From a virus (taxonomy: Duplodnaviria; Heunggongvirae; Uroviricota; Caudoviricetes): a DNA stretch of 26,501 nucleotides. Location of the stretch: the IMG/VR virus record IMGVR_UViG_2698536418_000022. The stretch is one strand, 5' to 3'. How positions within the stretch are numbered: position 1 is the stretch's first letter; the number at the start of each line of letters is the position of its first letter. The notes under the pieces are model-generated. The model searched no databases, had not been told where the DNA came from, and saw only the letters and a list, made by a program, of their open reading frames with translations. Below are positions 6,716-25,328 of this stretch, piece by piece. The position numbers were made by a program, and so were the translations under genes.

Positions 6716-7104
6716 GCCGGATAGGCTCCGTGTGGTAACTGAAAATGCGGTCCGTCTTTCAGGGTCTTCCAGTCGCCGCCCCATTCCACCGGAATATTCA
6801 GTTCCCGGCTGGCCTGTCTGAATGCTGCTGCGATTTTTTCGTACAGCGGCCATTCCCATGACACCTGGCTGCCGATATAAGCCACAACATCCACGGCATG
6901 CCCCGTAAGGTGGCGGCTGTTCATGGTCTGGCTCTTACCTGTGGCCACAAGTTGCTTCTGGCGGTAACGGCTGCGCAACCCTTCGGTGATACCAAAATCC
7001 ACTTCCGAAATTTCCAGTGCCCGTCGGGTCACTTTCACCAGATCAGGGTTTACGCCCTGCAAATTCTTTTCGCTCCGGCTGCTGAATTTAAATGTGTTGC
7101 TCAT
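6712..7104 (-). CDS. endolysin, peptidase M15-like (zinc D-Ala-D-Ala carboxypeptidase / L-Ala-D-Glu peptidase fold)
   Basis: 130 aa with an HLTGHAVDV-type metal-binding motif. Position between holin and spanins; RBS AAGGAG upstream; ATGA overlap with holin stop. Confidence 0.7.
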   Translation of the reverse strand: MSNTFKFSSRSEKNLQGVNPDLVKVTRRALEISEVDFGITEGLRSRYRQKQLVATGKSQTMNSRHLTGHAVDVVAYIGSQVSWEWPLYEKIAAAFRQASRELNIPVEWGGDWKTLKDGPHFQLPHGAYPA

Positions 7105-7627: not shown

Positions 7628-8121
7628 CAGCACAACTCCGCAAAGATTCGCGGGCGGCACAGAATGTCAGAGATGGCCCAGCTCACATCACGCCACAAAT
7701 CCGATGTCTGTATATCCAGTGCGTCCGCCCTGCGGTCGCCCTTGTCCGTTGTGTCCACATCGCGGTAACGCTCCAGAATCAGGGCGCGTGTGGCGGTATA
7801 AACAGCATTGCGCCAGTGCCAGAGATTGACGCTTTCTCCGTTAATTACGGGTGCCGGAACATCGGCCAGCGTCAGATGGCCAGCCGCCTGCTGTTCCTGC
7901 TGCCACGCTTCCAGCTCGCGGGTAACGTGTGCCACTGCCCCGGTGGCGGTATGCAGCAGGCGGGAGGTGGTCACACGGCCCGGCAGTCGTATCGCCAGAC
8001 GCAGCTCACGCAGCACAATATCCGGCCAGAATGCACCCGCTGAAATACGGGTATCACCATCATCGGTATCGGTGATGTCGTCCTCTGCGGGTCTTGGTTC
8101 AGTTCTGGCAACCATACTCAT
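7627..8121 (-). CDS. head completion / stabilization protein (P2 gpL-like)
   Basis: 164 aa, ATG at 8119-8121, position between M and X. Confidence 0.85.
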   Translation of the reverse strand: MSMVARTEPRPAEDDITDTDDGDTRISAGAFWPDIVLRELRLAIRLPGRVTTSRLLHTATGAVAHVTRELEAWQQEQQAAGHLTLADVPAPVINGESVNLWHWRNAVYTATRALILERYRDVDTTDKGDRRADALDIQTSDLWRDVSWAISDILCRPRIFAELC

Positions 8122-8224: not shown

Positions 8225-9025
8225 TTAACCGCGCTTCGCCTTCTGCGTCGCGGTGGTTTTTCGTGTTGCAGGCTTCCGCGTTGTCTTTTTACTTTTGCTG
8301 CTTTCGTCCTGCGCCTGCGGTGTGCTGGCATCTTCTGGTGCGGCTGCGGAATCGGCTTTTTTCAGGGCGCGGGAAAGGGTTGCAATCTCGCGTTTCACAC
8401 CTGCGTTCGGGTTCAGGTGCATCGCTTCGCGCAGCAGCTTCAGTGATGAGGCCATGCTGTCCGCATCGGTCAGGCCACGGCGGGCAAAGGCGCACGCTTT
8501 GCATAATTTGGCGCGCACTTCGTCCGGCATGTCCTGGTCGGTGACAATCTCCCGGAGGGTGTCCAGTGGTTCGATAAAGGCGGACAAATCCGCGTCGGCA
8601 TCCGTCCCGGCCTGCGTCAGTACCGGATTACAGATTTCTTCGGTCAGTACCGTGGCAGCAGTACGGCCAAAGTTATCCGGCATGATGAGGTTGTGATGGA
8701 CCACATACGCGCCGATACGCAGCGCAAGCGGAAGATCGCCACAGTCAATCGCCCACACCATCAGCGTGGCAATCACTTCATCCTGCTGCCCGCCGTCAGC
8801 CTCCAGCGTTCCCTCAATCCAGCCGGAAAAATCCGGCAACAACTCTTTTTTGATGGCGGCTTTCGCGCTTCTGGCCTGTACGCCCTTAAGCCGGGCCTGT
8901 GCCAGACGCAGACGATACAGCACCTCTTCATGCGCGGTACGCGCGGCATGGTCCACGCCTTCATTCGCCCGGCCTGCGCGCTGTGCCATCACGTTCTGCC
9001 AGTGTTGCTGTGCAGGAGTAATCAT
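8225..9025 (-). CDS. terminase endonuclease (small) subunit (P2 gpM-like)
   Basis: 266 aa, ATG at 9023-9025 with GGAG RBS; basic C-terminal tail; position downstream of capsid gene. Confidence 0.85.
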   Translation of the reverse strand: MITPAQQHWQNVMAQRAGRANEGVDHAARTAHEEVLYRLRLAQARLKGVQARSAKAAIKKELLPDFSGWIEGTLEADGGQQDEVIATLMVWAIDCGDLPLALRIGAYVVHHNLIMPDNFGRTAATVLTEEICNPVLTQAGTDADADLSAFIEPLDTLREIVTDQDMPDEVRAKLCKACAFARRGLTDADSMASSLKLLREAMHLNPNAGVKREIATLSRALKKADSAAAPEDASTPQAQDESSKSKKTTRKPATRKTTATQKAKRG

Positions 9026-15056: not shown

Positions 15057-15368
15057 TTACTCAGGAAATAACGCCCGGATATTCCCAGCCATCTGGCTGG
15101 TTATCTTAGCCACTGGTGCAGACTGTGCTTCAAACTTTTTTGAGCTGATTTGTGTCACAGGTAACATCTCATCATCAGCCCATGCGGCCAGTCGGTAAGC
15201 CTCTGCCGGATTCGTCTTCAGAAGTGCCAGCCCGGCCAGAAAAGCCACGCGTTGGCCGCTTTTGCGGGCTTCTGGTGTAAGGCTGTCCAGCCAGGCGCAT
15301 GCTTCTCCTTCGTTCTTGACGGCGGCGGGCTTCAGATAGAAACTTATCCGTCTGGTTGGTGTCGTCAT
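15057..15368 (-). CDS. parR: ParR-like centromere-binding adaptor (type II partition)
   Basis: Start placed at ATG 15366-15368, 4 nt after the parM stop with AAGGAG RBS. N-terminal RRISFYLKP...VAFLAGLALL and C-terminal IRALFP resemble recalled plasmid R1 ParR (RRTIAFKLNP...LTAGLALY...LRSLFP). Confidence 0.7.
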   Translation of the reverse strand: MTTPTRRISFYLKPAAVKNEGEACAWLDSLTPEARKSGQRVAFLAGLALLKTNPAEAYRLAAWADDEMLPVTQISSKKFEAQSAPVAKITSQMAGNIRALFPE

Positions 15369-15372
15369 TGGT

Positions 15373-16332
15373 TTACTCCTTGTCCATTGCGTACAGCCCA
15401 TTAACCAGAGCAAACTGTGGCACCCCGTCCGCGATGAAAGTCGCATTAACTCCGCAGGCTTCGCGGATAGCGGGTGCCACAATCTCCGCCCCGCCACCGA
15501 CAACCATCACCCGCCCGTAACCCGAAAAAACCGCCAGCGCGCGGATCACGCGTTGTTTCAGTGTTTCTTCCTTTTCACGAATAACCGCCATCAGGCTGGC
15601 GTAATGCGCGTCATTGTGGATGTGCTGGCGCAGCCAGGCTTCATTATGGCGATGTTCGATAATGGTATTGGCGATGTGGTGACTGGTGCGCATACCGTTA
15701 GTGGCCATCACCGACAGTACGGCATCGGCCATAAGAGAAACGCCTACGTGTGGATCGCAAAACACCTGGCTGATACCTGCCAGTTGCCCCTGAACCTTTG
15801 CCACATCCAGCGTGGTTCCGCCCAAATCCACAATCAGCAGGGATTCAAACGGACTCATGTCAGCCAGTGCTTTAAAGCCAGCCGGAATGGATTCAGGCAT
15901 AACCCGTACGTTACGGATAGTGAATGCTTCGCCGTTCTGGTACTCCACCGGGCGCATGACGTTCGCTTTTTTGCGGTTGATGTTGGCCATGTCCGGCTGT
16001 GCGTTTGTGTCGAAATATTCGCTCAGTGGCAGGGTAACAACCACATCCACTTCCTGTGGCGTGATGTCTGATTTGACCAGCGCGTGATGAATGGCAATGA
16101 CATTCACATCGCTGTACTGGTATTGCGTGTCGGTCGTCTGGACAAAGCGATCGCTGACCGGATCAAAACCATAGCGCACGCCATCAAGCATGTAGTTAGC
16201 AGGCTGCGAGCCACCGAACGGCGCAGACCATTCCGACTTGAAGCTGTTCGGGCTGATGGCGTTGCGGCGTTCGCCGTTCTCAGTCCATGCCAGCTTGATG
16301 TTGGTGGAGCCGTCGTCGATGTAAATTTTCAT
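15373..16332 (-). CDS. parM: ParM/StbA-like actin-family segregation ATPase
   Basis: 319 aa. IDDGSTNIKL, ISPNSFK, YSDVNVIAIHHAL, VMPESIPAG, SLLIVDLGGTTLD, FSGYGRVMVVGGGAE blocks are near-collinear with recalled plasmid R1 ParM. ATG at 16330-16332 with AAGGA RBS. Confidence 0.85.
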   Translation of the reverse strand: MKIYIDDGSTNIKLAWTENGERRNAISPNSFKSEWSAPFGGSQPANYMLDGVRYGFDPVSDRFVQTTDTQYQYSDVNVIAIHHALVKSDITPQEVDVVVTLPLSEYFDTNAQPDMANINRKKANVMRPVEYQNGEAFTIRNVRVMPESIPAGFKALADMSPFESLLIVDLGGTTLDVAKVQGQLAGISQVFCDPHVGVSLMADAVLSVMATNGMRTSHHIANTIIEHRHNEAWLRQHIHNDAHYASLMAVIREKEETLKQRVIRALAVFSGYGRVMVVGGGAEIVAPAIREACGVNATFIADGVPQFALVNGLYAMDKE

Positions 16333-16363: not shown

Positions 16364-16476
16364 TTTACGGGATTCTGAAATCCCGTTTTTGCCTGTTTTG
16401 TGCGCGCCTCATATATCGCTGCGCGTTTTTTGCTCATTTACGGGATTCGTGAGTCCCGTTTCTGTCTGTTTTTTGT
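16364..16476. repeat. two ~39 bp direct repeats (74 bp apart), each with an ACGGGATT...AATCCCGT-type palindrome and a T-rich tail; candidate parC-like centromere/promoter
   Basis: Copy 1 at 16364-16402 is intergenic upstream of parM. Copy 2 at 16438-16476 overlaps the 3' end of gene A. About 80 percent identical. Confidence 0.5.
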
Positions 16477-19255
16477 TTCCACTGGTCAGGCCACCCCGCA
16501 GCAGGTCTGCTTTGCGGCTGGCGCGTTCAGTGGTTTCACTGATTCTCTGTGCGTGCTCTGCGTCGCGGATGGCGCGCAGCATGTCAGAAAGCACGGTAAC
16601 GGGTGTTTTCATGGTGTTCTGGTCCTGCTGAAGTGTGGATGCCAGGCGTGCGGCGGCTTCAGGGTCTGATGCCCCCAGCTGTGCCAGATAGCTGGCGACC
16701 GGGTTATGGCGGATCTCCGTGCTGCTTACGCCATGATTACGGCTCAGACGCTGCCAGAGCTGCGTGATTCGGCTGTCCGGGCGGGTATCCGGTTTGCGTA
16801 CAATTTCAAATCCCTGCGGTGCAATGATGCTGCCGTCAACGTACAGACTGCCGCCCCGTAACAGGTGCTGCATCTGTTGTTCACCGATATGCAGGCCGAG
16901 AGATTCAGCAGACTCCCGCCATTCTTTAGCGAGTAACTCGTGGTTATCAGGCAAAGGCCGCTGCTGTTTGCGGCTCTGTGTCCAGTTCTGCATTTCATCG
17001 CTGCTGTTTTTTGCCTGTTTGTCACGAAGCGAACGCATCAGCGCCCGGCGTTCGTGCCGTTTCAGTGAGCGCATCCATTCATTTACTTCAACGCCGTCAG
17101 GAAGCTGCGGCCACGGTGCTGGCCGTTCTTCCGGCTGTTCTGTCCCGTTGTTGCCTGTTTCCTGTACACGGGGACAGTTATTGCCACGAGTCCGAGTCCA
17201 AGGGGCGGCAGGGCCGCCCTGAAGGTCAAAACCATTTTCGCGGGCGCTGTCTTCCGCTTCCGGTTTGCGTCTTACCAGCTTCCAGTTATCCGGATGCGTG
17301 CATACGCGGGAAGACTCCCCAATGAGCGGCGACCAGATCCCGTAAATCTGTACGCTCTGTTCACCGTAATCGTTCAGCTCATCTGCGAGGTCGTAGGCGG
17401 TGCGAATCAGGTAGTCTTTGCGTGGAACAAGTACGCCACCCTGTTTCTCAATGTAGGTGGCAAAACATCCGGCATCAGCGGCAGCGAGTACCGCGTCCAT
17501 TGCGTCATCCTTCAGCCGTTGCGGGCCTTCCGGATTGCGTGCCATCTGGCTGGCAAGGCGGCGCAGTTCACGCCACACCTGACGGGAGGGGATGCCAAAG
17601 AACTGGAACTGACGGACCCGGTGAAGGCGCGCCCAGCCGATGGCGCGCTCCACGCTCTCGGCCATTGATTTACCTGTTTCGTGGTCAACGCGTGGCTTGC
17701 CCGTTTTCGGGTCGATGCCATCCACGGCGCGGCTGTCCAGGTTCTTTCCGATGTAGGTGGCGATGTAGCTGGTTGGCGTGCCTTTTGAGCCGTCGACGTA
17801 CTCCGCCTTAAAACGCGGAGTTATGTCATCGCCCAGCTCGTGGCGGTCTTCCTGAATGGCAATATCGCAGACGTGGGACACGATGGTTTCAATCTCGTCC
17901 GGATGTGCAAAGACCATCATATGCCAGTGCACAGTGCCGTCATGGTGAGGCTCCACCGTGCGGATGCCATACCAGCGCAGGCCGTCGCGGTTCAGTTTTT
18001 TGCGGACCGCCGCAAAAAACGTGTTAACCAGGTAATCGCTGGAGTCGCGCATAGTGGCCCCGTTCCATTTGGGATTCGGATGACCGTTCTCCGTTGTTGC
18101 GTGGTATTTTGACGGGCAGGTGACAGTCAGAAACACCGCTCTGTCGCCACGGGCTTCGGCCAGAAGTTCCAGCCCCTTCATGGTGGCCATCATTTCTGCC
18201 TTACGGTGAACCGGGTTACTTACTCCCGCGTAATACACCGTCTCGAGATCAATCGTGAACCCGTCTTCATTTTCCAGCATGAAACTTTTCAGGAAATCGC
18301 GTGTTTTCTCGCGCTGTGCGCGAAACTCGCTTAACGCGTCCTGGCTCAGATAGGGTGATGTTTTTCTGGAAACCAGACAGGCGGCGCGGAGTTGTTCTTC
18401 CCGCCACTCGCAACGTAACAGCCACAGTTTGCGTTTCCACCATTCCGCACAGGTCAGGCGAAGGATTGCGCCCGGCAGCAGCTCCGTGTCCGGTTCGTTC
18501 CTCCGGTCTTTGTCTGTTGTCAGTGCGTCATAATGTGGAGGCATGGCGTGCAGGTGTAACGCCATGCGGGCCAGCATCTGATACGCCTTCAGCGTTACAT
18601 CCATGGTCAGCTCACCATCGGTCGCGCCAAAGCCATCGCAGAGTTTTTCGAAGGTGCTGCTGAACATCGCCGCCGTCATGGTGGCCAGCGTCTGTATCTG
18701 GTGCTTGTTGAGCTGCGGCAGGTAAAGCAAATCATCCAGGCGTTCGCGTCCGGCAAGGGAGCGATAACCCGGTGTCAGCCAGCGGTGGTCGGTGCGGTCC
18801 AGGCGTTCGAATATTTTGCGCAGGGTTCCGCGCGCGTAGCGTTCAGCCTGCCAGCTCTTTTTGCCTTTCTGGCGATCGGCTTCCTGTTTTTTGCGCAGGA
18901 AAGAGAGGTGGCGGCTCAGAGGTTCACGCAGATAAACGGGAAGCACCTTCAGTGTGGCAAAAGCACGGGCCACCGGGTCTTGTTCTGTTGCCTGACGCTT
19001 GCTGATGATGCTTTGTGCCAGCTTTTCACGCTGTCCGGCTTCCTCAAGGGATGCCATGAGTTTTTTACCCACGGTGGATTGTGCGAAAAAGGCTTCCTCC
19101 TTCGCTTCCTGTTCTTCCAGAGCCTTTTTGTCTGCCTCAAGGTAGTAACGGATGGCGCGTTGCAGGTCGGTTTCAGTTTCCTGCCTGTGCTCCGTAAATC
19201 TGGCCGGATCAATGGCTGGCCGTGGTTCATTCCAGCTCCATGCAAACTCATTCAT
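16409..19255 (-). CDS. replication initiation endonuclease (P2 gpA-like rolling-circle initiator)
   Basis: Blocks TLTCPSRFHATT-like, PNPKWNGAT, HHDGTVHWHMMVF, AAADAGCFATYI, GGVLVPRK match recalled P2 gpA. Start placed at ATG 19253-19255 (track start is GTG at 19282). About 190 aa longer than P2 A at the C-terminus. Confidence 0.85.
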   Translation of the reverse strand: MNEFAWSWNEPRPAIDPARFTEHRQETETDLQRAIRYYLEADKKALEEQEAKEEAFFAQSTVGKKLMASLEEAGQREKLAQSIISKRQATEQDPVARAFATLKVLPVYLREPLSRHLSFLRKKQEADRQKGKKSWQAERYARGTLRKIFERLDRTDHRWLTPGYRSLAGRERLDDLLYLPQLNKHQIQTLATMTAAMFSSTFEKLCDGFGATDGELTMDVTLKAYQMLARMALHLHAMPPHYDALTTDKDRRNEPDTELLPGAILRLTCAEWWKRKLWLLRCEWREEQLRAACLVSRKTSPYLSQDALSEFRAQREKTRDFLKSFMLENEDGFTIDLETVYYAGVSNPVHRKAEMMATMKGLELLAEARGDRAVFLTVTCPSKYHATTENGHPNPKWNGATMRDSSDYLVNTFFAAVRKKLNRDGLRWYGIRTVEPHHDGTVHWHMMVFAHPDEIETIVSHVCDIAIQEDRHELGDDITPRFKAEYVDGSKGTPTSYIATYIGKNLDSRAVDGIDPKTGKPRVDHETGKSMAESVERAIGWARLHRVRQFQFFGIPSRQVWRELRRLASQMARNPEGPQRLKDDAMDAVLAAADAGCFATYIEKQGGVLVPRKDYLIRTAYDLADELNDYGEQSVQIYGIWSPLIGESSRVCTHPDNWKLVRRKPEAEDSARENGFDLQGGPAAPWTRTRGNNCPRVQETGNNGTEQPEERPAPWPQLPDGVEVNEWMRSLKRHERRALMRSLRDKQAKNSSDEMQNWTQSRKQQRPLPDNHELLAKEWRESAESLGLHIGEQQMQHLLRGGSLYVDGSIIAPQGFEIVRKPDTRPDSRITQLWQRLSRNHGVSSTEIRHNPVASYLAQLGASDPEAAARLASTLQQDQNTMKTPVTVLSDMLRAIRDAEHAQRISETTERASRKADLLRGGLTSGNKKQTETGLTNPVNEQKTRSDI

Positions 19256-19641
19256 GGCTGGTATCCCGTCACGCGCTGCCACTCCTGCGAGAAGAGGGCA
19301 GAAAGGCGGTTAAATTCAGCGGTGTATTCACTCAGCGAGGCACACCCGCCAGCAGTGCGATGCGCCAGCATTGCCGCAAATACGGAGGCCGGGGAGTCGT
19401 AATACGCCAGCAGTGATTCTCCGTGTGGTGTCAGGCAGTGCAACGCCAGCCCGTGTGGTGTGAAGTCCACGCGGTAGCAGTCGTCTACTGTGAAATAAAG
19501 GGTGTCTGCATTCTCCGGTTTTGTGGTGCGTGCTCTGTTGTCACGACCACGGATGTAGAGATCAAATAATCCCTGAAGAACGGGAGCCAGACGGGTGTCC
19601 TGTGTGCGCACCCATCTTGTGAAGTCATGAGCGTCAATCAT
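19252..19641 (-). CDS. hypothetical early-operon protein (129 aa)
   Basis: ATG at 19639-19641; stop overlaps the A start by 4 nt (translational coupling). Confidence 0.5.
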   Translation of the reverse strand: MIDAHDFTRWVRTQDTRLAPVLQGLFDLYIRGRDNRARTTKPENADTLYFTVDDCYRVDFTPHGLALHCLTPHGESLLAYYDSPASVFAAMLAHRTAGGCASLSEYTAEFNRLSALFSQEWQRVTGYQP

Positions 19642-19713
19642 GCTGCAATTCTCTTTACTACAGATGTGCGAAGGCCTCCCGCCGCAAGGTGCAGGAAAGG
19701 CCCGGAACAGGAA

Positions 19714-19944
19714 TTAATGGGGTTTGTTTTGCTGCTCGATGAGCTGCTGAAGCTCGCGCAGATCATCCGCCAGATAGCTAAATACTGCGGCGGAGTAGGC
19801 GTTTGACAGCACGTGGCTGTGCTCATGTGACATGTTGATGAACATGATACGAGCGACGCGTGATGCGCGGTAAAGTCTGCGGTTGATTTCAGTCTGGATG
19901 TGACGACGCGCAGCGTATGCGCGCTGTTGTTTGCGGTTTGCCAT
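19714..19944 (-). CDS. hypothetical small basic protein (76 aa)
   Basis: ATG at 19942-19944; same strand and operon context as A. Confidence 0.5.
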   Translation of the reverse strand: MANRKQQRAYAARRHIQTEINRRLYRASRVARIMFINMSHEHSHVLSNAYSAAVFSYLADDLRELQQLIEQQNKPH

Positions 19945-20121
19945 GGGGTGGCCTCTTTGGTTGTAAGTTTTGAAAACTCACCATCCAGAGGTGGAAAACT
20001 CGGGGTGGTGAGACGTACAGGGTTTCCACAACCGGCAACCAAAGAACCCGGCCCGACCGAAGTCGGCCCTGTACGCCCCACCATAATTCGTGTGCGAAAA
20101 AGACGTGGCGATACGGTACGC

Positions 20122-20144
20122 ACAAAAAAACCGCTGGCGCGGTT
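20122..20144 (-). terminator. rho-independent terminator (minus strand) within the early operon
   Basis: On the minus strand: stem AACCGC / GCGGTT with a 4 nt loop, followed by TTTTTTT. Confidence 0.6.
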
Positions 20145-20266
20145 GTGCGCTTTGGTTGTCAGCGGGGTGGAAATCCCGGCACCCGTTTTATGAGGTGCAG
20201 CGGAAATGTAACCTGACTGATTGCGGCATGGCAAGCGGTTTTTTTGTGTGTGCATGTTCTGGTTTC

Positions 20267-20566
20267 TTACTGGTTCAGAAAAAAATCAAAAACCTTGTCA
20301 ATGCGTTGCAGCAGCTCTTGCTGTATTGCTTCCGGCGTTTCCGGTTCGCCCGGCGCCTCCAACGTCGCGCAGAAATCAGCGATTTCATGATGGAGCGTCA
20401 GGCGAATGGCAGGAGCCGTGGTTCTGGCGTGCTCCAGCTCATTCAGCAGTGCCAGCACAGCAGACGGCGAGAGCATTGCGCGAAATGCCAGTAATTTTTG
20501 AGGCGTTGCCATTCGTTGCAGGGCAAATGCCAGTTCGCGTAGCTTCTGGTGGTTGATGGTGCTCAT
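20267..20566 (-). CDS. hypothetical protein (99 aa)
   Basis: ATG at 20564-20566, ATGA overlap with the upstream gene stop. Confidence 0.5.
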   Translation of the reverse strand: MSTINHQKLRELAFALQRMATPQKLLAFRAMLSPSAVLALLNELEHARTTAPAIRLTLHHEIADFCATLEAPGEPETPEAIQQELLQRIDKVFDFFLNQ

Positions 20567-20829
20567 GCTCTGGCTTCCTTCAGTAGCTGGTTAAACATGT
20601 GAGTAAGTGGATTGCTACACCCGAACGGCATCGGGTTTACGTGGTAAGAAGCCTGGCCTCCTGTTTTGCGAGCGCGACCACCTGTGCTGCGGTTTGTTCT
20701 GATGACTAAGCCGCCGCGCCAAAGTCGGCGTAACTCAGCATTAATGGCTGTGGTTGGGGTATTCAGTGCTGCGGCGATCTCTCCGCCGCTACACCCCGGA
20801 TGAGTAGCGATGTAGTCCAGAATGATCAT
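20563..20829 (-). CDS. small DNA-binding protein, probable winged-helix regulator (88 aa)
   Basis: ATG at 20827-20829. Helix-turn-helix-like segment GGEIAAALNTPTTAINAELRRL followed by a basic, glycine-rich wing. Confidence 0.5.
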   Translation of the reverse strand: MIILDYIATHPGCSGGEIAAALNTPTTAINAELRRLWRGGLVIRTNRSTGGRARKTGGQASYHVNPMPFGCSNPLTHMFNQLLKEARA

Positions 20830-21052: not shown

Positions 21053-21469
21053 CTATGCGTTAAATACGGCACGTTGCGCGTCATCAATGAATACAGCTTG
21101 AGAGCGTTCTATCAGGCGGAGATTTGTCAGAAGCTCTGACTCTTTTGTGTGGTAAGGCGTTATCAGGTATTTGCCGTGCAGTTCGGCAATAATGGTGTAT
21201 TGCGTCATTATTGCCGAACCAAGAATGTAAATGCGGCGTCCAATGCTGGACGGATTCATGGCTGCAACTGTTGACTGTGTTTTAAGAGTATCGATTTCTT
21301 TGCCCTGTTCCTCAATAATTTTGGCTGCGTCAGCGGTGATTTTTGCAATGGTCAGTGCGTGAAGTGCTGCCATATGTTGGCTACGCTTCACGGCATCTTT
21401 AGCCATTTCATCTTCCGCTTCTGATATTTTTTTTAATGTGTCGATAATGCCTTCTTCTTTTGCTTTCAT
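21053..21469 (-). CDS. hypothetical protein with N-terminal coiled coil (138 aa)
   Basis: ATG at 21467-21469 with GGAG RBS; preceded by a ~90 bp AT-rich gap. Confidence 0.5.
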   Translation of the reverse strand: MKAKEEGIIDTLKKISEAEDEMAKDAVKRSQHMAALHALTIAKITADAAKIIEEQGKEIDTLKTQSTVAAMNPSSIGRRIYILGSAIMTQYTIIAELHGKYLITPYHTKESELLTNLRLIERSQAVFIDDAQRAVFNA

Positions 21470-22894: not shown

Positions 22895-22940
22895 GTGTAC
22901 TTATAAGTACACCTTGTGCGCAAGCTTAGTGTACTTATAG
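22895..22940. promoter_or_regulatory. immunity operator: perfect 18 bp palindrome GTGTACTTATAAGTACAC plus a third half-site copy GTGTACTTATAG
   Basis: Palindrome at 22895-22912 and direct repeat of the half-site at 22929-22940, in the 96 bp gap between divergent cox-like and C genes. Confidence 0.7.
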
Positions 22941-22951
22941 GAACACTGTCA

Positions 22952-23260
22952 ATGCTTATCGGTGAAAAAATTAGAGTGATTCGTGAATCAGAGGATTTAA
23001 CGCGCGAAGAATTTTGCGGCCTGATTGATGTGCCTATCGGCACTTTGCGTCGTTATGAAACGGGGCGGATTGAAAACATAGGGGGCGAAGTGCTTATCAA
23101 GATTGTTAATCACCCTCGCTTTTTTAAGTACATGAATTGGCTTATGACGGGAAAAACAAATGAGGCTGCTGGGCAGATCAGTCCGTCTCTCTCCCCTGAT
23201 GGGCCAAAAAGCACATCGCCTTCTCAAAAACCCCGCAAGACTGGCACACAGCCCGGCTAA
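22952..23260 (+). CDS. immunity repressor (P2 C-like)
   Basis: Start placed at ATG 22952 (MLIGEKIRVIRESEDLTREEF...). HTH plus FFKYMNWLMTGK...AAGQISPSL resembles recalled P2 C (FTKYTLWFMT...ESGQIAPAL). Confidence 0.8.
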   Translation: MLIGEKIRVIRESEDLTREEFCGLIDVPIGTLRRYETGRIENIGGEVLIKIVNHPRFFKYMNWLMTGKTNEAAGQISPSLSPDGPKSTSPSQKPRKTGTQPG

Positions 23261-24890: not shown

Positions 24891-25328
24891 ATGTCAGATA
24901 AACTTGAAAGGCGAATTGAGCGACTCGAAGGTGATTTATCGCTAACAAGAAACGACCTTGCGACGCTTACTGAACGCACTACAAACCTCTCAACCAAAGC
25001 TGATGTTGGTGAGGTGAAAGGTGAGCTCAAAGCAGACATTGCTCATCTGAAAGGTGATCTTAAATGCGATATTGCGAATCTAAAAGGTGAGCTTAAATCT
25101 GATACAGCTCACCTGAAAGAGCAGCTCAAATCAGACATTAACAGCCTGAAGGGTGAGCTTACCGAAGCGATGGATAAACGCTTTGACAAGATTATGGATG
25201 AGATGAATCGGCGGTTTGACAAGGTTGATGATAATACGAAGTGGCGTTGGAGTGGCATTATTGTGCCAGTATGCACAACCATTTTCACGGCGGCGGTTGC
25301 TGTATTTGTTGCTAAATTTGTTGGCTGA
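24891..25328 (+). CDS. tail-anchored coiled-coil membrane protein with tandem 11-residue repeats (145 aa; longer if an upstream start is used)
   Basis: ATG at 24891 has the best RBS (GGAGG); alternative in-frame ATGs at 24774, 24783, 24828. Five 11-aa repeats (LKGELKADIAH-type) and a C-terminal hydrophobic anchor IIVPVCTTIFTAAVAVFVAKFVG. Confidence 0.6.
   Translation: MSDKLERRIERLEGDLSLTRNDLATLTERTTNLSTKADVGEVKGELKADIAHLKGDLKCDIANLKGELKSDTAHLKEQLKSDINSLKGELTEAMDKRFDKIMDEMNRRFDKVDDNTKWRWSGIIVPVCTTIFTAAVAVFVAKFVG
25017..25160 (+). repeat. four and a half tandem copies of a 33 bp repeat inside the coiled-coil gene
   Basis: Copies beginning AAAGGTGAGCT... at 25017, 25050, 25083, 25116 and a partial copy at 25149; each encodes one 11-aa repeat in frame. 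Confidence 0.7.

Follow-up and report, generated by a model that had tools for sequence, protein, structure and literature searches.

The window analysed here, a stretch of DNA of 26,501 nucleotides, belongs to a P2-like prophage of Escherichia coli (P2 family, P88-like, Xuanwuvirus). In its early operon, a gap of about 320 bp is bounded by the stop of a 99-aa ORF (20267) and the ATG of a 76-aa ORF (19944). A preliminary description of the sequence had rightly called this gap non-coding and highly structured. Its minus strand is occupied by two curated Rfam families, an isrK leader and a C4 antisense RNA; each half of the gap gives a full-length match to one of the two covariance models, far beyond chance. 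The features of the locus are the following.

20205..20234, minus strand: predicted sigma-70-type promoter, from a consensus scan, with -35 TTGCCA (20234..20229), an 18-nt spacer and -10 TACATT (20210..20205)
20124..20198, minus strand: isrK-type leader RNA, the equivalent of P4 seqA, full-model match to RF01394
20167..20173, minus strand: a1 target, UUUCCAC, located in the hairpin 2 loop of the leader; complement of a'
20150..20158, minus strand: b1 target, CAACCAAAG, within the linker of the leader, immediately 5' of the terminator; complement of b'
20122..20144, minus strand: intrinsic terminator closing the leader, AACCGC-GCCA-GCGGUU plus U7, from a terminator scan and the isrK model match
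20001..20088, minus strand: C4/CI-type antisense RNA, 88 nt, full-model match to RF01695
20036..20044, minus strand: b' patch, CUUUGGUUG, unpaired, in the hairpin 2 loop of C4
20023..20029, minus strand: a' patch, GUGGAAA, in the unpaired junction from hairpin 2 to the 3' strand of the outer stem
19991..19997, minus strand: a2 target, UUUCCAC, directly downstream of the C4 stem
19952..19963, minus strand: b2 target, CAACCAAAGA (19963..19954), overlapping the Shine-Dalgarno sequence AAGAGG (19957..19952)
19714..19944, minus strand: 76-aa gene related to the P4 epsilon anti-repressor (PF25738; phrog_3688), the first gene under C4
19252..19641, minus strand: 129-aa ORF (phrog_3237, E = 4.8e-60), between the epsilon-like gene and A
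16409..19255, minus strand: replication initiator gene A, a nicking endonuclease (Pfam Phage_GPA, E = 1.5e-129), the distal controlled gene
22916..23260, plus strand: P2-type C immunity repressor, 114 aa, 39% identical to P2 C over the whole length (E = 2e-23)

As the preliminary description had proposed, the region is placed to control the genes leading to A; the 76-aa gene, the 129-aa ORF and A follow it in this order. The 76-aa protein matched the Pfam family PF25738, 'Derepression' (33.1 bits, with the cutoff at 27; E = 4.6e-8), and gave a modest BLASTP match to P4 epsilon (35% identity over 51 aa, E = 5e-8); its P88 counterpart is annotated as a 'derepression protein'. The known target of P4 epsilon is P2 C (PMC2995052). 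By analogy, the 76-aa product is probably an anti-repressor aimed at the P2-type C repressor. The stop of the 129-aa ORF overlaps the RefSeq start of A by 4 nt (ATGA), and the product showed no similarity to P4 orf151. Gene A belongs to phrog_91 ('nicking at origin of replication') and is a 'replication endonuclease' in RefSeq. In homologous modules, the genes downstream encode either epsilon-like 'Derepression' proteins or Rha-family regulators.

The predicted transcription start, at about 20198, is the first base of the isrK match, and the -10 hexamer ends 7 nt before it. Across 16 P88-like modules the two hexamers show little or no variation, while three of these modules differ in the sequence of the spacer, and the Stx-phage, N15-type and P4-like modules carry other hexamer variants at the same -35 and -10 positions. 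The cassette thus appears to be headed by its own conserved promoter, whose activity is predicted from these motifs. Downstream of it, the leader scored 64.3 bits with the isrK Hfq-binding RNA model RF01394 (gathering score 50, E = 7.8e-12, model positions 1-77 of 77), which also matches P88 and an Stx2 phage, besides P4 seqA and N15. Its layout comprises hairpin 1, hairpin 2 with a1 in the loop, a single-stranded linker with b1 and the terminator hairpin. An RNAalifold alignment of 27 leaders recovered the three hairpins, with compensatory changes in 7 of the 16 pairs, and the covariation lies in hairpin 1 and in the terminator, the stem of which changes from AU/CG to GC/AU in 7 of the 27 leaders. 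The minus-strand terminator noticed in the preliminary description is real, the terminator scan placing its stem at 20144..20129 and its T run up to 20122. With the c4-a1b1 model, RF03163, no match was obtained in positions 19600-20700 at E values up to 10 (gathering score 46.7 bits), and the same model reached 44.1 and 42.4 bits, just under the gathering score, on P4 and N15. The function attached to that family is present in the window, where a1 and b1 occur and co-vary with C4, but membership of the model is not.

The second half of the gap scored 82 bits with the C4 model RF01695 (gathering score 45, E = 6e-15, model positions 1-87 of 87). The C4 RNA folds into a 17-bp outer stem around a CCGAC-UUCG-GUCGG hairpin and a GCCGG...CCGGU hairpin; the minimum free energy structure of the single sequence, taken alone, is identical to the Rfam structure (-46.4 kcal/mol), and RNAalifold on 30 homologues recovered this fold with its 27 pairs, of which 12 show compensatory changes and none is broken. 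Most of the repeats from which the preliminary description had built mutually exclusive attenuator stems find their place in this single stable fold, and the remainder are antisense/target pairs. In particular, CGTACAGGG does lie at 20014-20022, whereas its partner CCCTGTACG sits at 20067-20075 and not, one base off, at 20068-20076, and the two form part of the 17-bp outer stem instead of a competing one. Likewise, GGCCCGAC-cgaa-GTCGGCCC is found at 20050-20069 and is the 5-bp CCGAC-UUCG-GUCGG hairpin within that stem, its outermost G/C belonging to the outer stem. GTGGAAA (19991-19997) and TTTCCAC (20023-20029) occur exactly where they had been reported; they are no element of the fold, corresponding to the unpaired a' patch of C4 and to its downstream target a2. 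What was right from the beginning is the alternative of a structured small RNA, now identified with the C4 and isrK families.

A permissive Rfam scan of positions 19600-20700 returned as extras IMPDH, STnc410 and Ms_IGR-4, all at chance level and far under their gathering scores, and a scan for tRNA and tmRNA found none in the window. The fold of the 269-nt transcript gave z = -3.26 relative to shuffled sequences. In the minimum free energy fold of this 269-nt precursor, a1 and b1 pair with a' and b' in cis and the C4 outer stem is broken; because of this pairing in the whole precursor, effects in cis could rival those in trans.

Two patches of C4, a' and b', are complementary to two pairs of target sites, one in the leader (a1, b1) and one downstream (a2, b2). 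The preliminary description lacked b' with its targets (b2 being the one that covers the ribosome-binding site of the 76-aa gene), as well as the leader sites a1 and b1 and the promoter of the cassette. The b2 target covers AAGAGG, and the ATG of the 76-aa ORF follows 7 nt past this Shine-Dalgarno sequence; the 5' part of the b' loop is a conserved UUCU (UUCY), similar to an anti-Shine-Dalgarno. The sequence CAACCAAAG occurs four times in the window against 0.39 expected, and three of the four copies are within the gap. The fourth (24991-24999, plus strand) was taken as a chance occurrence, since no a-site adjoins it.

When the window is compared with P88, b1 and b' show matched changes, from CAACCAAAG/CUUUGGUUG to CAACUACAG/CUGUAGUUG. 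In 16 P88-like modules with a mean identity of 89%, variation is concentrated in a1, b1, b', a', a2 and b2, which are nearly the only positions that vary. On the leader side, the a1:a' helix is 100% paired in all 16 modules with four of its seven pairs changed on both sides, and the b1:b' helix is likewise 100% paired with seven of nine pairs so changed. Taken together, the two leader helices are 100% paired, 11 of 16 pairs having changed on both sides, and their covariation score of 0.698 (0.132 for shuffles) was reached by none of 500 shuffles, while controls slid along the sequence pair at 50% or less. On the downstream side, the a':a2 helix is 100% paired (four of seven pairs changed on both sides), and for a':a2 together with b':b2 the paired fraction is 98.4%; both bases have changed in 10 of these 16 pairs, and the score is 0.672 versus 0.126 for shuffles. 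The covariation analysis put forward as a check in the preliminary description was thus strongly positive (12 of 27 pairs in C4, 7 of 16 in the leader, patch helices paired at 98-100%), and the search of RNA family models, also put forward there, identified the two curated families RF01695 and RF01394.

The same four target positions were found in 28 specificity types, drawn from 96 viral contigs. These types comprise 20 different b' loops and 14 different a' junctions, reassorted with each other, and complementarity is higher within a locus than between loci (8.96 nt versus 4.96 nt for b' and its downstream site). The distance from the end of b2 to an ATG start is 9-11 nt in 25 of the 28 types; the exceptions (N15, L020 and L033) are cases in which the exact-match script chose an imperfect or wrong site. 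For the window sequence alone, the b'-b2 duplex has an energy of -18.2 kcal/mol, reached by 10 of 500 shuffles. At the other three of the four sites, the energy of the duplex did not stand out significantly from that with shuffled targets, the duplexes being 7-9 nt long. It follows that the case for pairing rests on the covariation across relatives, with b'-b2 as the one duplex that is significant in a single sequence.

The closest parallel is the satellite P4. The isrK model matches its seqA leader (8692..8615) and the C4 model its CI RNA (8507..8420); the order of parts is the same, beginning with the promoter (PLE in P4) and the leader with its terminator (seqA), then the antisense RNA (CI, with seqB), a2 and b2 (seqC in P4) with b2 on a ribosome-binding site, the epsilon-family gene and, after orf151 in P4, the replication gene (alpha in P4); and the 76-aa protein shares a Pfam family with P4 epsilon. 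In P4, the CI RNA pairs with seqA and seqC, causing premature termination (PMC4825925). Different from P4, which carries an alpha primase, the window represents a full P2-type phage with capsid, tail, C repressor, Cox and A. Furthermore, b2 of P4 lies on a 65-aa ORF that ends at the start of epsilon, whereas in the window it lies directly on the epsilon-like gene; the spacing from leader to C4 is about 107 nt in P4 and 35 nt in the window; and P4 orf151 is unrelated to the 129-aa ORF.

The immI system of P1 and P7, whose c4 RNA gave the Rfam C4 family its name, offers a second parallel. There, too, an antisense RNA is processed (on the P1 side) from the 5' part of the operon that it controls, two patches face target pairs upstream and downstream, the first gene has the downstream pair at its ribosome-binding site, an anti-repressor is controlled and allelic patches lead to heteroimmunity. 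The 5' end of C4-type RNAs is made by RNase P in P1 and P4. The c4 RNA blocks synthesis of the anti-repressor by pairing around the ribosome-binding site and sets the heteroimmunity of P1 and P7 (PMC12197685; PMC8546580). However, the first gene in P1 is icd and the anti-repressor is Ant1/Ant2, whereas in the window the first gene is epsilon-like and the operon runs into the replication initiator.

In the Salmonella prophage Gifsy-1, where the isrK family was defined, the module has its own promoter, a leader terminator with partial read-through, a processed RNA of about 80 nt downstream and an anti-repressor-type gene under control. IsrK is a structural homologue of seqA, with the processed STnc1160 RNA of about 80 nt downstream (PMC4825925), and the Gifsy-1 authors themselves noted the likeness to P4 seqA/CI (PMC4825925). 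The differences are that Gifsy-1 is a lambdoid prophage, that its downstream genes orf45 and anrP are unlike those of the window and that its leader is assigned an activating role: the short leader is reported to switch on translation of the ORF behind it, and the toxicity of IsrK was not relieved by constitutive STnc1160 (PMC4825925). In the anti-immunity locus of the phage-plasmid N15, which differs from the window in phage type and in downstream genes, both Rfam models match upstream of genes 32-30 and an intrinsic terminator is annotated between the two matches. The small processed CA RNA of N15, which controls antirepressor genes, is said, in work of Ravin et al. from 1999, to promote termination at that terminator. 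No Rfam match was obtained in the int-C-cox-B-A-old region of P2, and since P2 itself has none, the cassette is not a general P2 feature. We found no report in the literature of this cassette in P2-like phages or in P88.

The gap therefore holds a control cassette of known type, consisting of a small C4/CI antisense RNA, a leader and target sites, and not a new attenuator. We consider it, with a probability of about three in four, a self-contained RNA immunity cassette of the kind of P1 c4, P4 CI, N15 and Gifsy-1 IsrK-STnc1160, which probably holds down the anti-repressor gene and the replication gene behind it. The only novelty, a modest one, is its position within the early operon of a P2-family, P88-like phage.

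By analogy with these systems, it is possible to propose how the cassette would work. The promoter at 20234..20205, probably constitutive, would start transcription at about 20198, and many transcripts would end at the terminator (20144-20122), yielding an IsrK-like leader RNA of about 77 nt. Read-through transcripts would carry the 88-nt C4, which, if the analogy with P1 and P4 holds, would be excised from the precursor as a stable small RNA and act in trans. Its a' (GUGGAAA) and b' (CUUUGGUUG) patches would then pair with a2 and b2 on the read-through or early-operon mRNA. Because b2 covers the Shine-Dalgarno sequence, the epsilon-like gene would remain untranslated and silent, and the loss of coupled translation (polarity) would leave little expression of the 129-aa ORF and of gene A. 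The same patches could also pair with a1 and b1, which might either favour termination in the leader, as reported for P4 and N15, or let the short leader, being abundant, titrate C4. Since the short Gifsy-1 leader is reported as an activator (PMC4825925), control through the leader could run either way. In a lysogen, the outcome would be a second, sequence-specific layer of immunity that silences the anti-repressor and the replication initiator, those of the prophage as well as those of any phage entering the cell with the same type of RNA.

The Gifsy-1 model suggests a different emphasis, in which the short leader acts in trans to switch on translation of the first downstream gene, opening an inactive fold of the long mRNA or titrating C4, and C4 is mainly a structure of the mRNA in cis. 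The full-length match to the isrK model, the cis pairing of a1/b1 with a'/b' in the precursor fold and the activation by short IsrK RNA in Gifsy-1 (PMC4825925; PMC7547250) all speak for this model. In addition, a1 and b1 have the same sequence as a2 and b2, so that the leader must compete with the mRNA for C4. Nevertheless, we regard it as rather unlikely, since the same two models match P4, where the processed CI RNA causes premature termination (PMC4825925), and P1/P7 c4 is a trans-acting repressor (PMC8546580; PMC12197685). Moreover, b' carries the anti-Shine-Dalgarno-like UUCY, and 25 of 28 types have b2 on the ribosome-binding site, which is the geometry of a repressor. The activating leader and the repressing C4 are compatible views, as the leader may be a decoy that sets the threshold for C4.

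We find it much less plausible that a purely cis-acting attenuator or antitermination switch, without a separate small RNA, governs read-through into A. Even though the leader does contain a real intrinsic terminator, an alternative cis fold is possible and the region lies within the early operon upstream of A, the stems on which this proposal was founded resolve into one stable fold plus antisense/target pairs that do not compete. An anti-terminator pairing of CCGCUG (around 20165) with CAGCGG of the terminator was considered as a conserved element and rejected because the segment is changed in two of the loci (L007 and L024), and no anti-terminator pairing is conserved. Furthermore, the cassette has its own conserved promoter, the homologous RNAs of P1, P4 and Gifsy-1 accumulate as discrete processed species (PMC4825925; PMC8546580), and a' and b' diversify along with all four targets, as is expected of a diffusible specificity determinant.

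A coding explanation, in which the region specifies a protein of the 'Ash' family and the repeats are incidental, can be derived from the annotation. RefSeq lists 20255..19986 as an 'ash family protein' pseudogene, a 205-aa ORF (20255..19638) matches PF10554, Phage_ASH (32.7 bits against a cutoff of 26), and most of the 28 types have no stop in this frame throughout the module. Yet the PF10554 match covers the promoter -10, the leader with its terminator, C4, a2, b2 and the out-of-frame start of the 76-aa gene, and its ATG precedes the promoter of the cassette, with no clear Shine-Dalgarno sequence before it. The ORF has different limits in P4, in N15 and in the window, which have just the RNA part in common, and the frame is broken in L061, L019, L077, L001 and N15. 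The six patches change by up to 6 of 9 nt with their base pairs preserved, which coding does not explain; the real P4 epsilon protein matches PF25738 and not PF10554; and in the overlapping 'orf45' of Gifsy-1 the nucleotides are conserved while the amino acids vary (PMC12197685). NCBIfam has no family for the 76-aa, 129-aa and 205-aa products. We conclude that translation of the Ash frame is unlikely and that Ash coding as the explanation of the region is hardly credible. The RefSeq 'ash family protein' pseudogene is in all likelihood a mislabel that features for non-coding RNA should replace, the gap of about 320 bp being fully explained by two curated RNA families, a promoter and target sites. 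Equally hard to sustain is the notion that the cassette of this prophage is an inactive remnant. RefSeq does mark one early gene nearby as frameshifted, but the matches of all six patches are perfect or almost perfect, and no damage is seen in the promoter, the terminator, the folds, the ribosome-binding site or the downstream ORFs. Nine complete E. coli genomes carry identical copies and 939 genomes carry close relatives, and the related phages P88 and phiSM are active.

If the RNA immunity cassette operates as proposed, P88-like phages might combine two layers of immunity, a C/Cox switch and a P4-type antisense RNA gating an epsilon-type anti-repressor and A, with the anti-repressor aimed at the P2-type C repressor of the phage itself or of a rival. 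We offer this joint claim only tentatively. Should it be true, the reassorted a' and b' alleles, at least 14 and at least 20 variants, respectively, in a small sample, would define RNA immunity groups among nearly identical prophages, and a cassette common to helpers and P4-like satellites would point to the exchange of immunity/derepression modules between them.

More generally, the C4/CI cassette emerges as a portable unit of promoter, leader, antisense RNA and ribosome-binding-site target, present in P2-type phages, Stx lambdoid phages, N15-type phage-plasmids and P4-like satellites. A known mechanism is thereby extended to another phage family, and the current understanding is not overturned. 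P88-like prophages were found in 1373 of 5426 complete E. coli genomes, about one-quarter. The cassette, which comes in many matched specificity alleles and in these prophages precedes an epsilon-type anti-repressor gene and A, may therefore influence prophage induction and the cross-talk of P2-like prophages with co-resident P4-like satellites, a possible influence that extends to O157:H7 strains.

A 99-aa Ead-like ORF (stop at 20267) and a 76-aa ORF (ATG at 19944), both on the minus strand, are separated by a gap of 322 bp. This gap contains the only two matches above Rfam gathering scores in the whole window, both on the minus strand and both covering the full models: the C4 antisense RNA and the Hfq-binding RNA isrK. 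No tRNA was detected in the whole window. The preliminary description had taken the gap either for an attenuator or antitermination element or for a structured small RNA, and had proposed a search against RNA family models; this search assigned the gap to two curated families, in agreement with the small-RNA reading. All the inverted repeats it had named were found on direct reading of the sequence, although CCCTGTACG lies at 20067-20075 and not at 20068-20076. In particular, CGTACAGGG/CCCTGTACG is a portion of the 17-bp outer stem of C4, and the GGCCCGAC/GTCGGCCC repeat comprises the inner CCGAC-UUCG-GUCGG hairpin together with outer-stem bases. The minus-strand terminator, recovered by a consensus scan (stem 20144..20129, U run to 20122), corresponds to the hairpin at the 3' end of the isrK leader. 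On its own, C4 folds as the Rfam structure (-46.4 kcal/mol).

Two patches of C4 are unpaired, namely, b' (CUUUGGUUG), in the loop of the second hairpin, and a' (GUGGAAA), at the junction. Their complements, CAACCAAAG and UUUCCAC, respectively, each occur at two places on the same strand, one in the leader (b1 and a1) and one downstream of C4 (b2 and a2); the GTGGAAA/TTTCCAC repeat of the preliminary description corresponds to a2 and a'. The elements are arranged as follows.

Elements of the gap, in the order of transcription
20234..20205, minus strand: promoter TTGCCA-18-TACATT (consensus scan), ending 7 nt before the isrK match
20198..20124, minus strand: isrK Hfq-binding RNA (RF01394), 64.3 bits against a gathering score of 50
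20173..20167, minus strand: a1, located in the loop of the second leader hairpin
20158..20150, minus strand: b1, complementary to b', in the leader linker immediately before the terminator
20088..20001, minus strand: C4 antisense RNA (RF01695), 82 bits against a gathering score of 45
19997..19991, minus strand: a2 (UUUCCAC), complementary to a'
19963..19955, minus strand: b2, 10 bp plus a G-U pair with b' when extended, over the Shine-Dalgarno sequence AAGAGG of the 76-aa ORF

When the window sequence was considered alone, the b'-b2 duplex exceeded shuffled targets (10 of 500 shuffles), whereas those of a1, b1, and a2 showed no excess; since only b'-b2 stands out in a single sequence, the comparative data bear the weight. 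A fourth exact copy of CAACCAAAG was noticed at 24991-24999 on the plus strand, within an ORF near the integrase end; with no neighbouring a-site and 0.39 copies expected per window, it is probably due to chance.

When IMG/VR was scanned for exact matches to a pattern of the conserved C4 core, 120 loci were retrieved, 96 of which had sufficient flanking sequence and represented 28 distinct (b', a') types, with 20 b' loops and 14 a' junctions reassorting freely. Both patches have complements at four positions that are shared by 28/28 types. Two of these, a1 and b1, lie upstream of C4 within the leader and are separated by 15-16 nt (about -85 and -70 relative to the 5' end of C4 in the clade to which the window belongs); a2 directly follows the C4 stem, and b2 is located approximately 34 nt farther downstream. 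The longest complement was longer within a locus than across loci in all four comparisons (7.75 versus 5.30 nt for the upstream b-site, 8.96 versus 4.96 nt for the downstream b-site, 7.18 versus 4.96 nt for the upstream a-site, and 7.21 versus 4.70 nt for the downstream a-site). Furthermore, b2 ends 9-11 nt before an ATG in 25 of the types, and the genes that follow it encode epsilon-like 'Derepression' proteins or Rha-family regulators.

The covariation analysis proposed in the preliminary description revealed compensatory changes both in the folds and in the patch/target pairs. In an alignment of 16 P88-like modules, window included (mean identity, 89%), variation falls almost wholly within the six patches. 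Pairing is complete (100%) for a1:a' and b1:b', where both sides have changed in 11 of 16 pairs and the covariation score is 0.698 versus 0.132 for shuffled data (0 of 500), slid controls being at most 50% paired; for a':a2 and b':b2, pairing reaches 98.4%, and both sides have changed in 10 of 16 pairs (score, 0.672 versus 0.126). Matched differences are exemplified by CUUUGGUUG/CAACCAAAG in the window and CUGUAGUUG/CAACUACAG in coliphage P88. RNAalifold returned the Rfam fold for 30 C4 sequences (12 compensatory pairs, none broken) and three hairpins for 27 leaders (7 compensatory pairs).

Some loci present further peculiarities. In five leaders (L001, L019, L089, L005, and L025), b1 differs from b2 at one position (for example, CAAUCGAGG versus CAAUCAAGG), where a G-U pair with b' replaces a Watson-Crick pair, and b1 in the leader may consistently pair less strongly than b2 at the ribosome-binding site. 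Viral contig L042 carries two C4 cores (7044-7065 and 7913-7934) 870 nt apart, and L071 carries after C4 a 342-aa ORF (1336-2361) matching both Phage_ASH and Derepression, which suggests tandem cassettes in some elements.

Both promoter hexamers are kept in 16 close relatives, 3 of which have a replaced spacer, and distant modules show other good hexamers at the same positions (TTGACT...TATATT; TTGACG...TAGAGT in N15); hence, the cassette appears to bring its own promoter. In P88 (L003, 3171-4001), an SPFH-domain gene, absent from window 20199-20266, lies between the Ead-like gene and the cassette, suggesting a gene-insertion hotspot just upstream of the promoter.

The window represents a prophage of the P2 family, and its identity in this region is about 90% to both P88 (Peduoviridae, Xuanwuvirus) and Citrobacter phage phiSM; a 100% identical prophage resides in E. 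coli O157:H7 FRIK944 and in eight more complete genomes, and 1373 of the 5426 complete E. coli genomes harbour related copies. The minus strand carries, in order, a Cox-like gene, several small ORFs, MarR-like and Ead-like genes, the gap, the 76-aa ORF, a 129-aa ORF, and gene A (Phage_GPA, E = 1.5e-129); the last two overlap, at the stop of the 129-aa ORF and the start of gene A. The plus strand carries an integrase and a C repressor of the P2 type (39% identity to P2 C). The 76-aa product was assigned to Pfam PF25738 'Derepression', the P4 epsilon anti-repressor family (E = 4.6e-8; 35% identity to P4 epsilon). A 138-aa early gene, whose homologue RefSeq marks as frameshifted in FRIK944, is intact in the window (21053-21469, minus strand; full-length phrog_9338 match). 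Directly 3' of gene A (about 15057-16332, minus strand), RefSeq annotates ParM plasmid-segregation and plasmid partitioning/stability proteins; P1, N15, and P4, classical carriers of C4-type RNA, can persist as plasmids.

Both RNA models also match P88, N15 (upstream of genes 32-30), an Stx2 phage whose GenBank record already labels 'isrK' and 'C4 antisense RNA', and P4, in which the seqA leader (8692..8615) is matched by isrK and the CI RNA (8507..8420) by C4; farther downstream in P4 are a2/b2, a ribosome-binding site, epsilon, orf151, and alpha (the replication gene). The P2 early region gave no Rfam match. In P4 (L004, 8168-8364, minus strand), the ribosome-binding site on which b2 (UUCACAGGA) lies belongs to a 65-aa ORF (ATG 8364). 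This ORF corresponds to the 3' portion, in frame, of the old 'cI' ORF and ends at the start of epsilon, so that translational coupling between the two is possible; in the window, instead, the epsilon-like gene itself comes first. The c4 RNA of P1/P7 pairs around a ribosome-binding site, blocks anti-repressor synthesis, and underlies heteroimmunity (PMC12197685; PMC8546580), while P4 CI RNA causes premature termination through pairing with seqA and seqC (summarised in PMC4825925). The c4 antisense RNA and the c4-a1b1 motif are both listed by Weinberg et al. (PMC2864571). According to the Gifsy-1 study, IsrK and P4 seqA are structural homologues, and STnc1160, a processed RNA of about 80 nt, lies downstream of IsrK (PMC4825925).

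A serious alternative is that the leader acts as an activator in the Gifsy-1 manner, which could coexist with repression by C4. It agrees with the minimum free energy fold of the whole read-through transcript (19930-20198, minus strand; -103.5 kcal/mol, z = -3.26), in which a1/b1 pair with a'/b' in cis and the outer stem of C4 is broken; refolding or cutting of the precursor may thus be needed before C4 acts. A purely cis-acting attenuator is unlikely because the cassette has a promoter of its own, C4 folds stably, and all six patches have diversified into alleles. A protein-coding 'Ash' gene, annotated by RefSeq as an 'ash family protein' pseudogene (19986-20255, minus strand) with a PF10554 match, is very unlikely, since the match crosses promoter, terminator, and RNA, several homologues have a broken frame, variation keeps base pairs and not residues, and the real P4 epsilon matches only PF25738. 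PF10554 (Phage_ASH) matches the translated promoter-leader-C4-b2 module of the window, the old P4 'cI' ORF (L004, 8168-8584, minus strand), and N15 gp32 (L002, 2600-2890, plus strand), and therefore gives the impression of a protein family derived in large part from an RNA gene. Where PF10554 served as the 'epsilon' marker in a survey of P4-like satellites (PMC8628076), the locus detected was probably that of the CI RNA instead.

Thus, the gap is a real and well-supported feature, for which two curated RNA families and a mechanism known for a long time provide the explanation. We found no paper in the searchable literature describing the cassette in phages of the P2 family, P88-like or other, and its place in a P2-family early operon, directly before an epsilon-type anti-repressor and gene A, appears undescribed. 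It is possible to hypothesize that the cassette promoter is active in the lysogen, with some transcripts stopping at the leader terminator and others reading through to yield processed C4. Pairing of a'/b' with a2/b2 would make the ribosome-binding site of the epsilon-like gene inaccessible and, through a polar effect, lower expression of the 129-aa ORF and gene A, while pairing with a1/b1 could either increase termination at the leader terminator, as in P4 and N15, or make the short leader a decoy for C4, which is compatible with the Gifsy-1 data. Acting in trans, C4 would likewise strike the early-operon transcripts of any incoming phage whose RNA type is the same. The epsilon-like protein would presumably inactivate a P2-type C repressor, as P4 epsilon does P2 C (PMC2995052).
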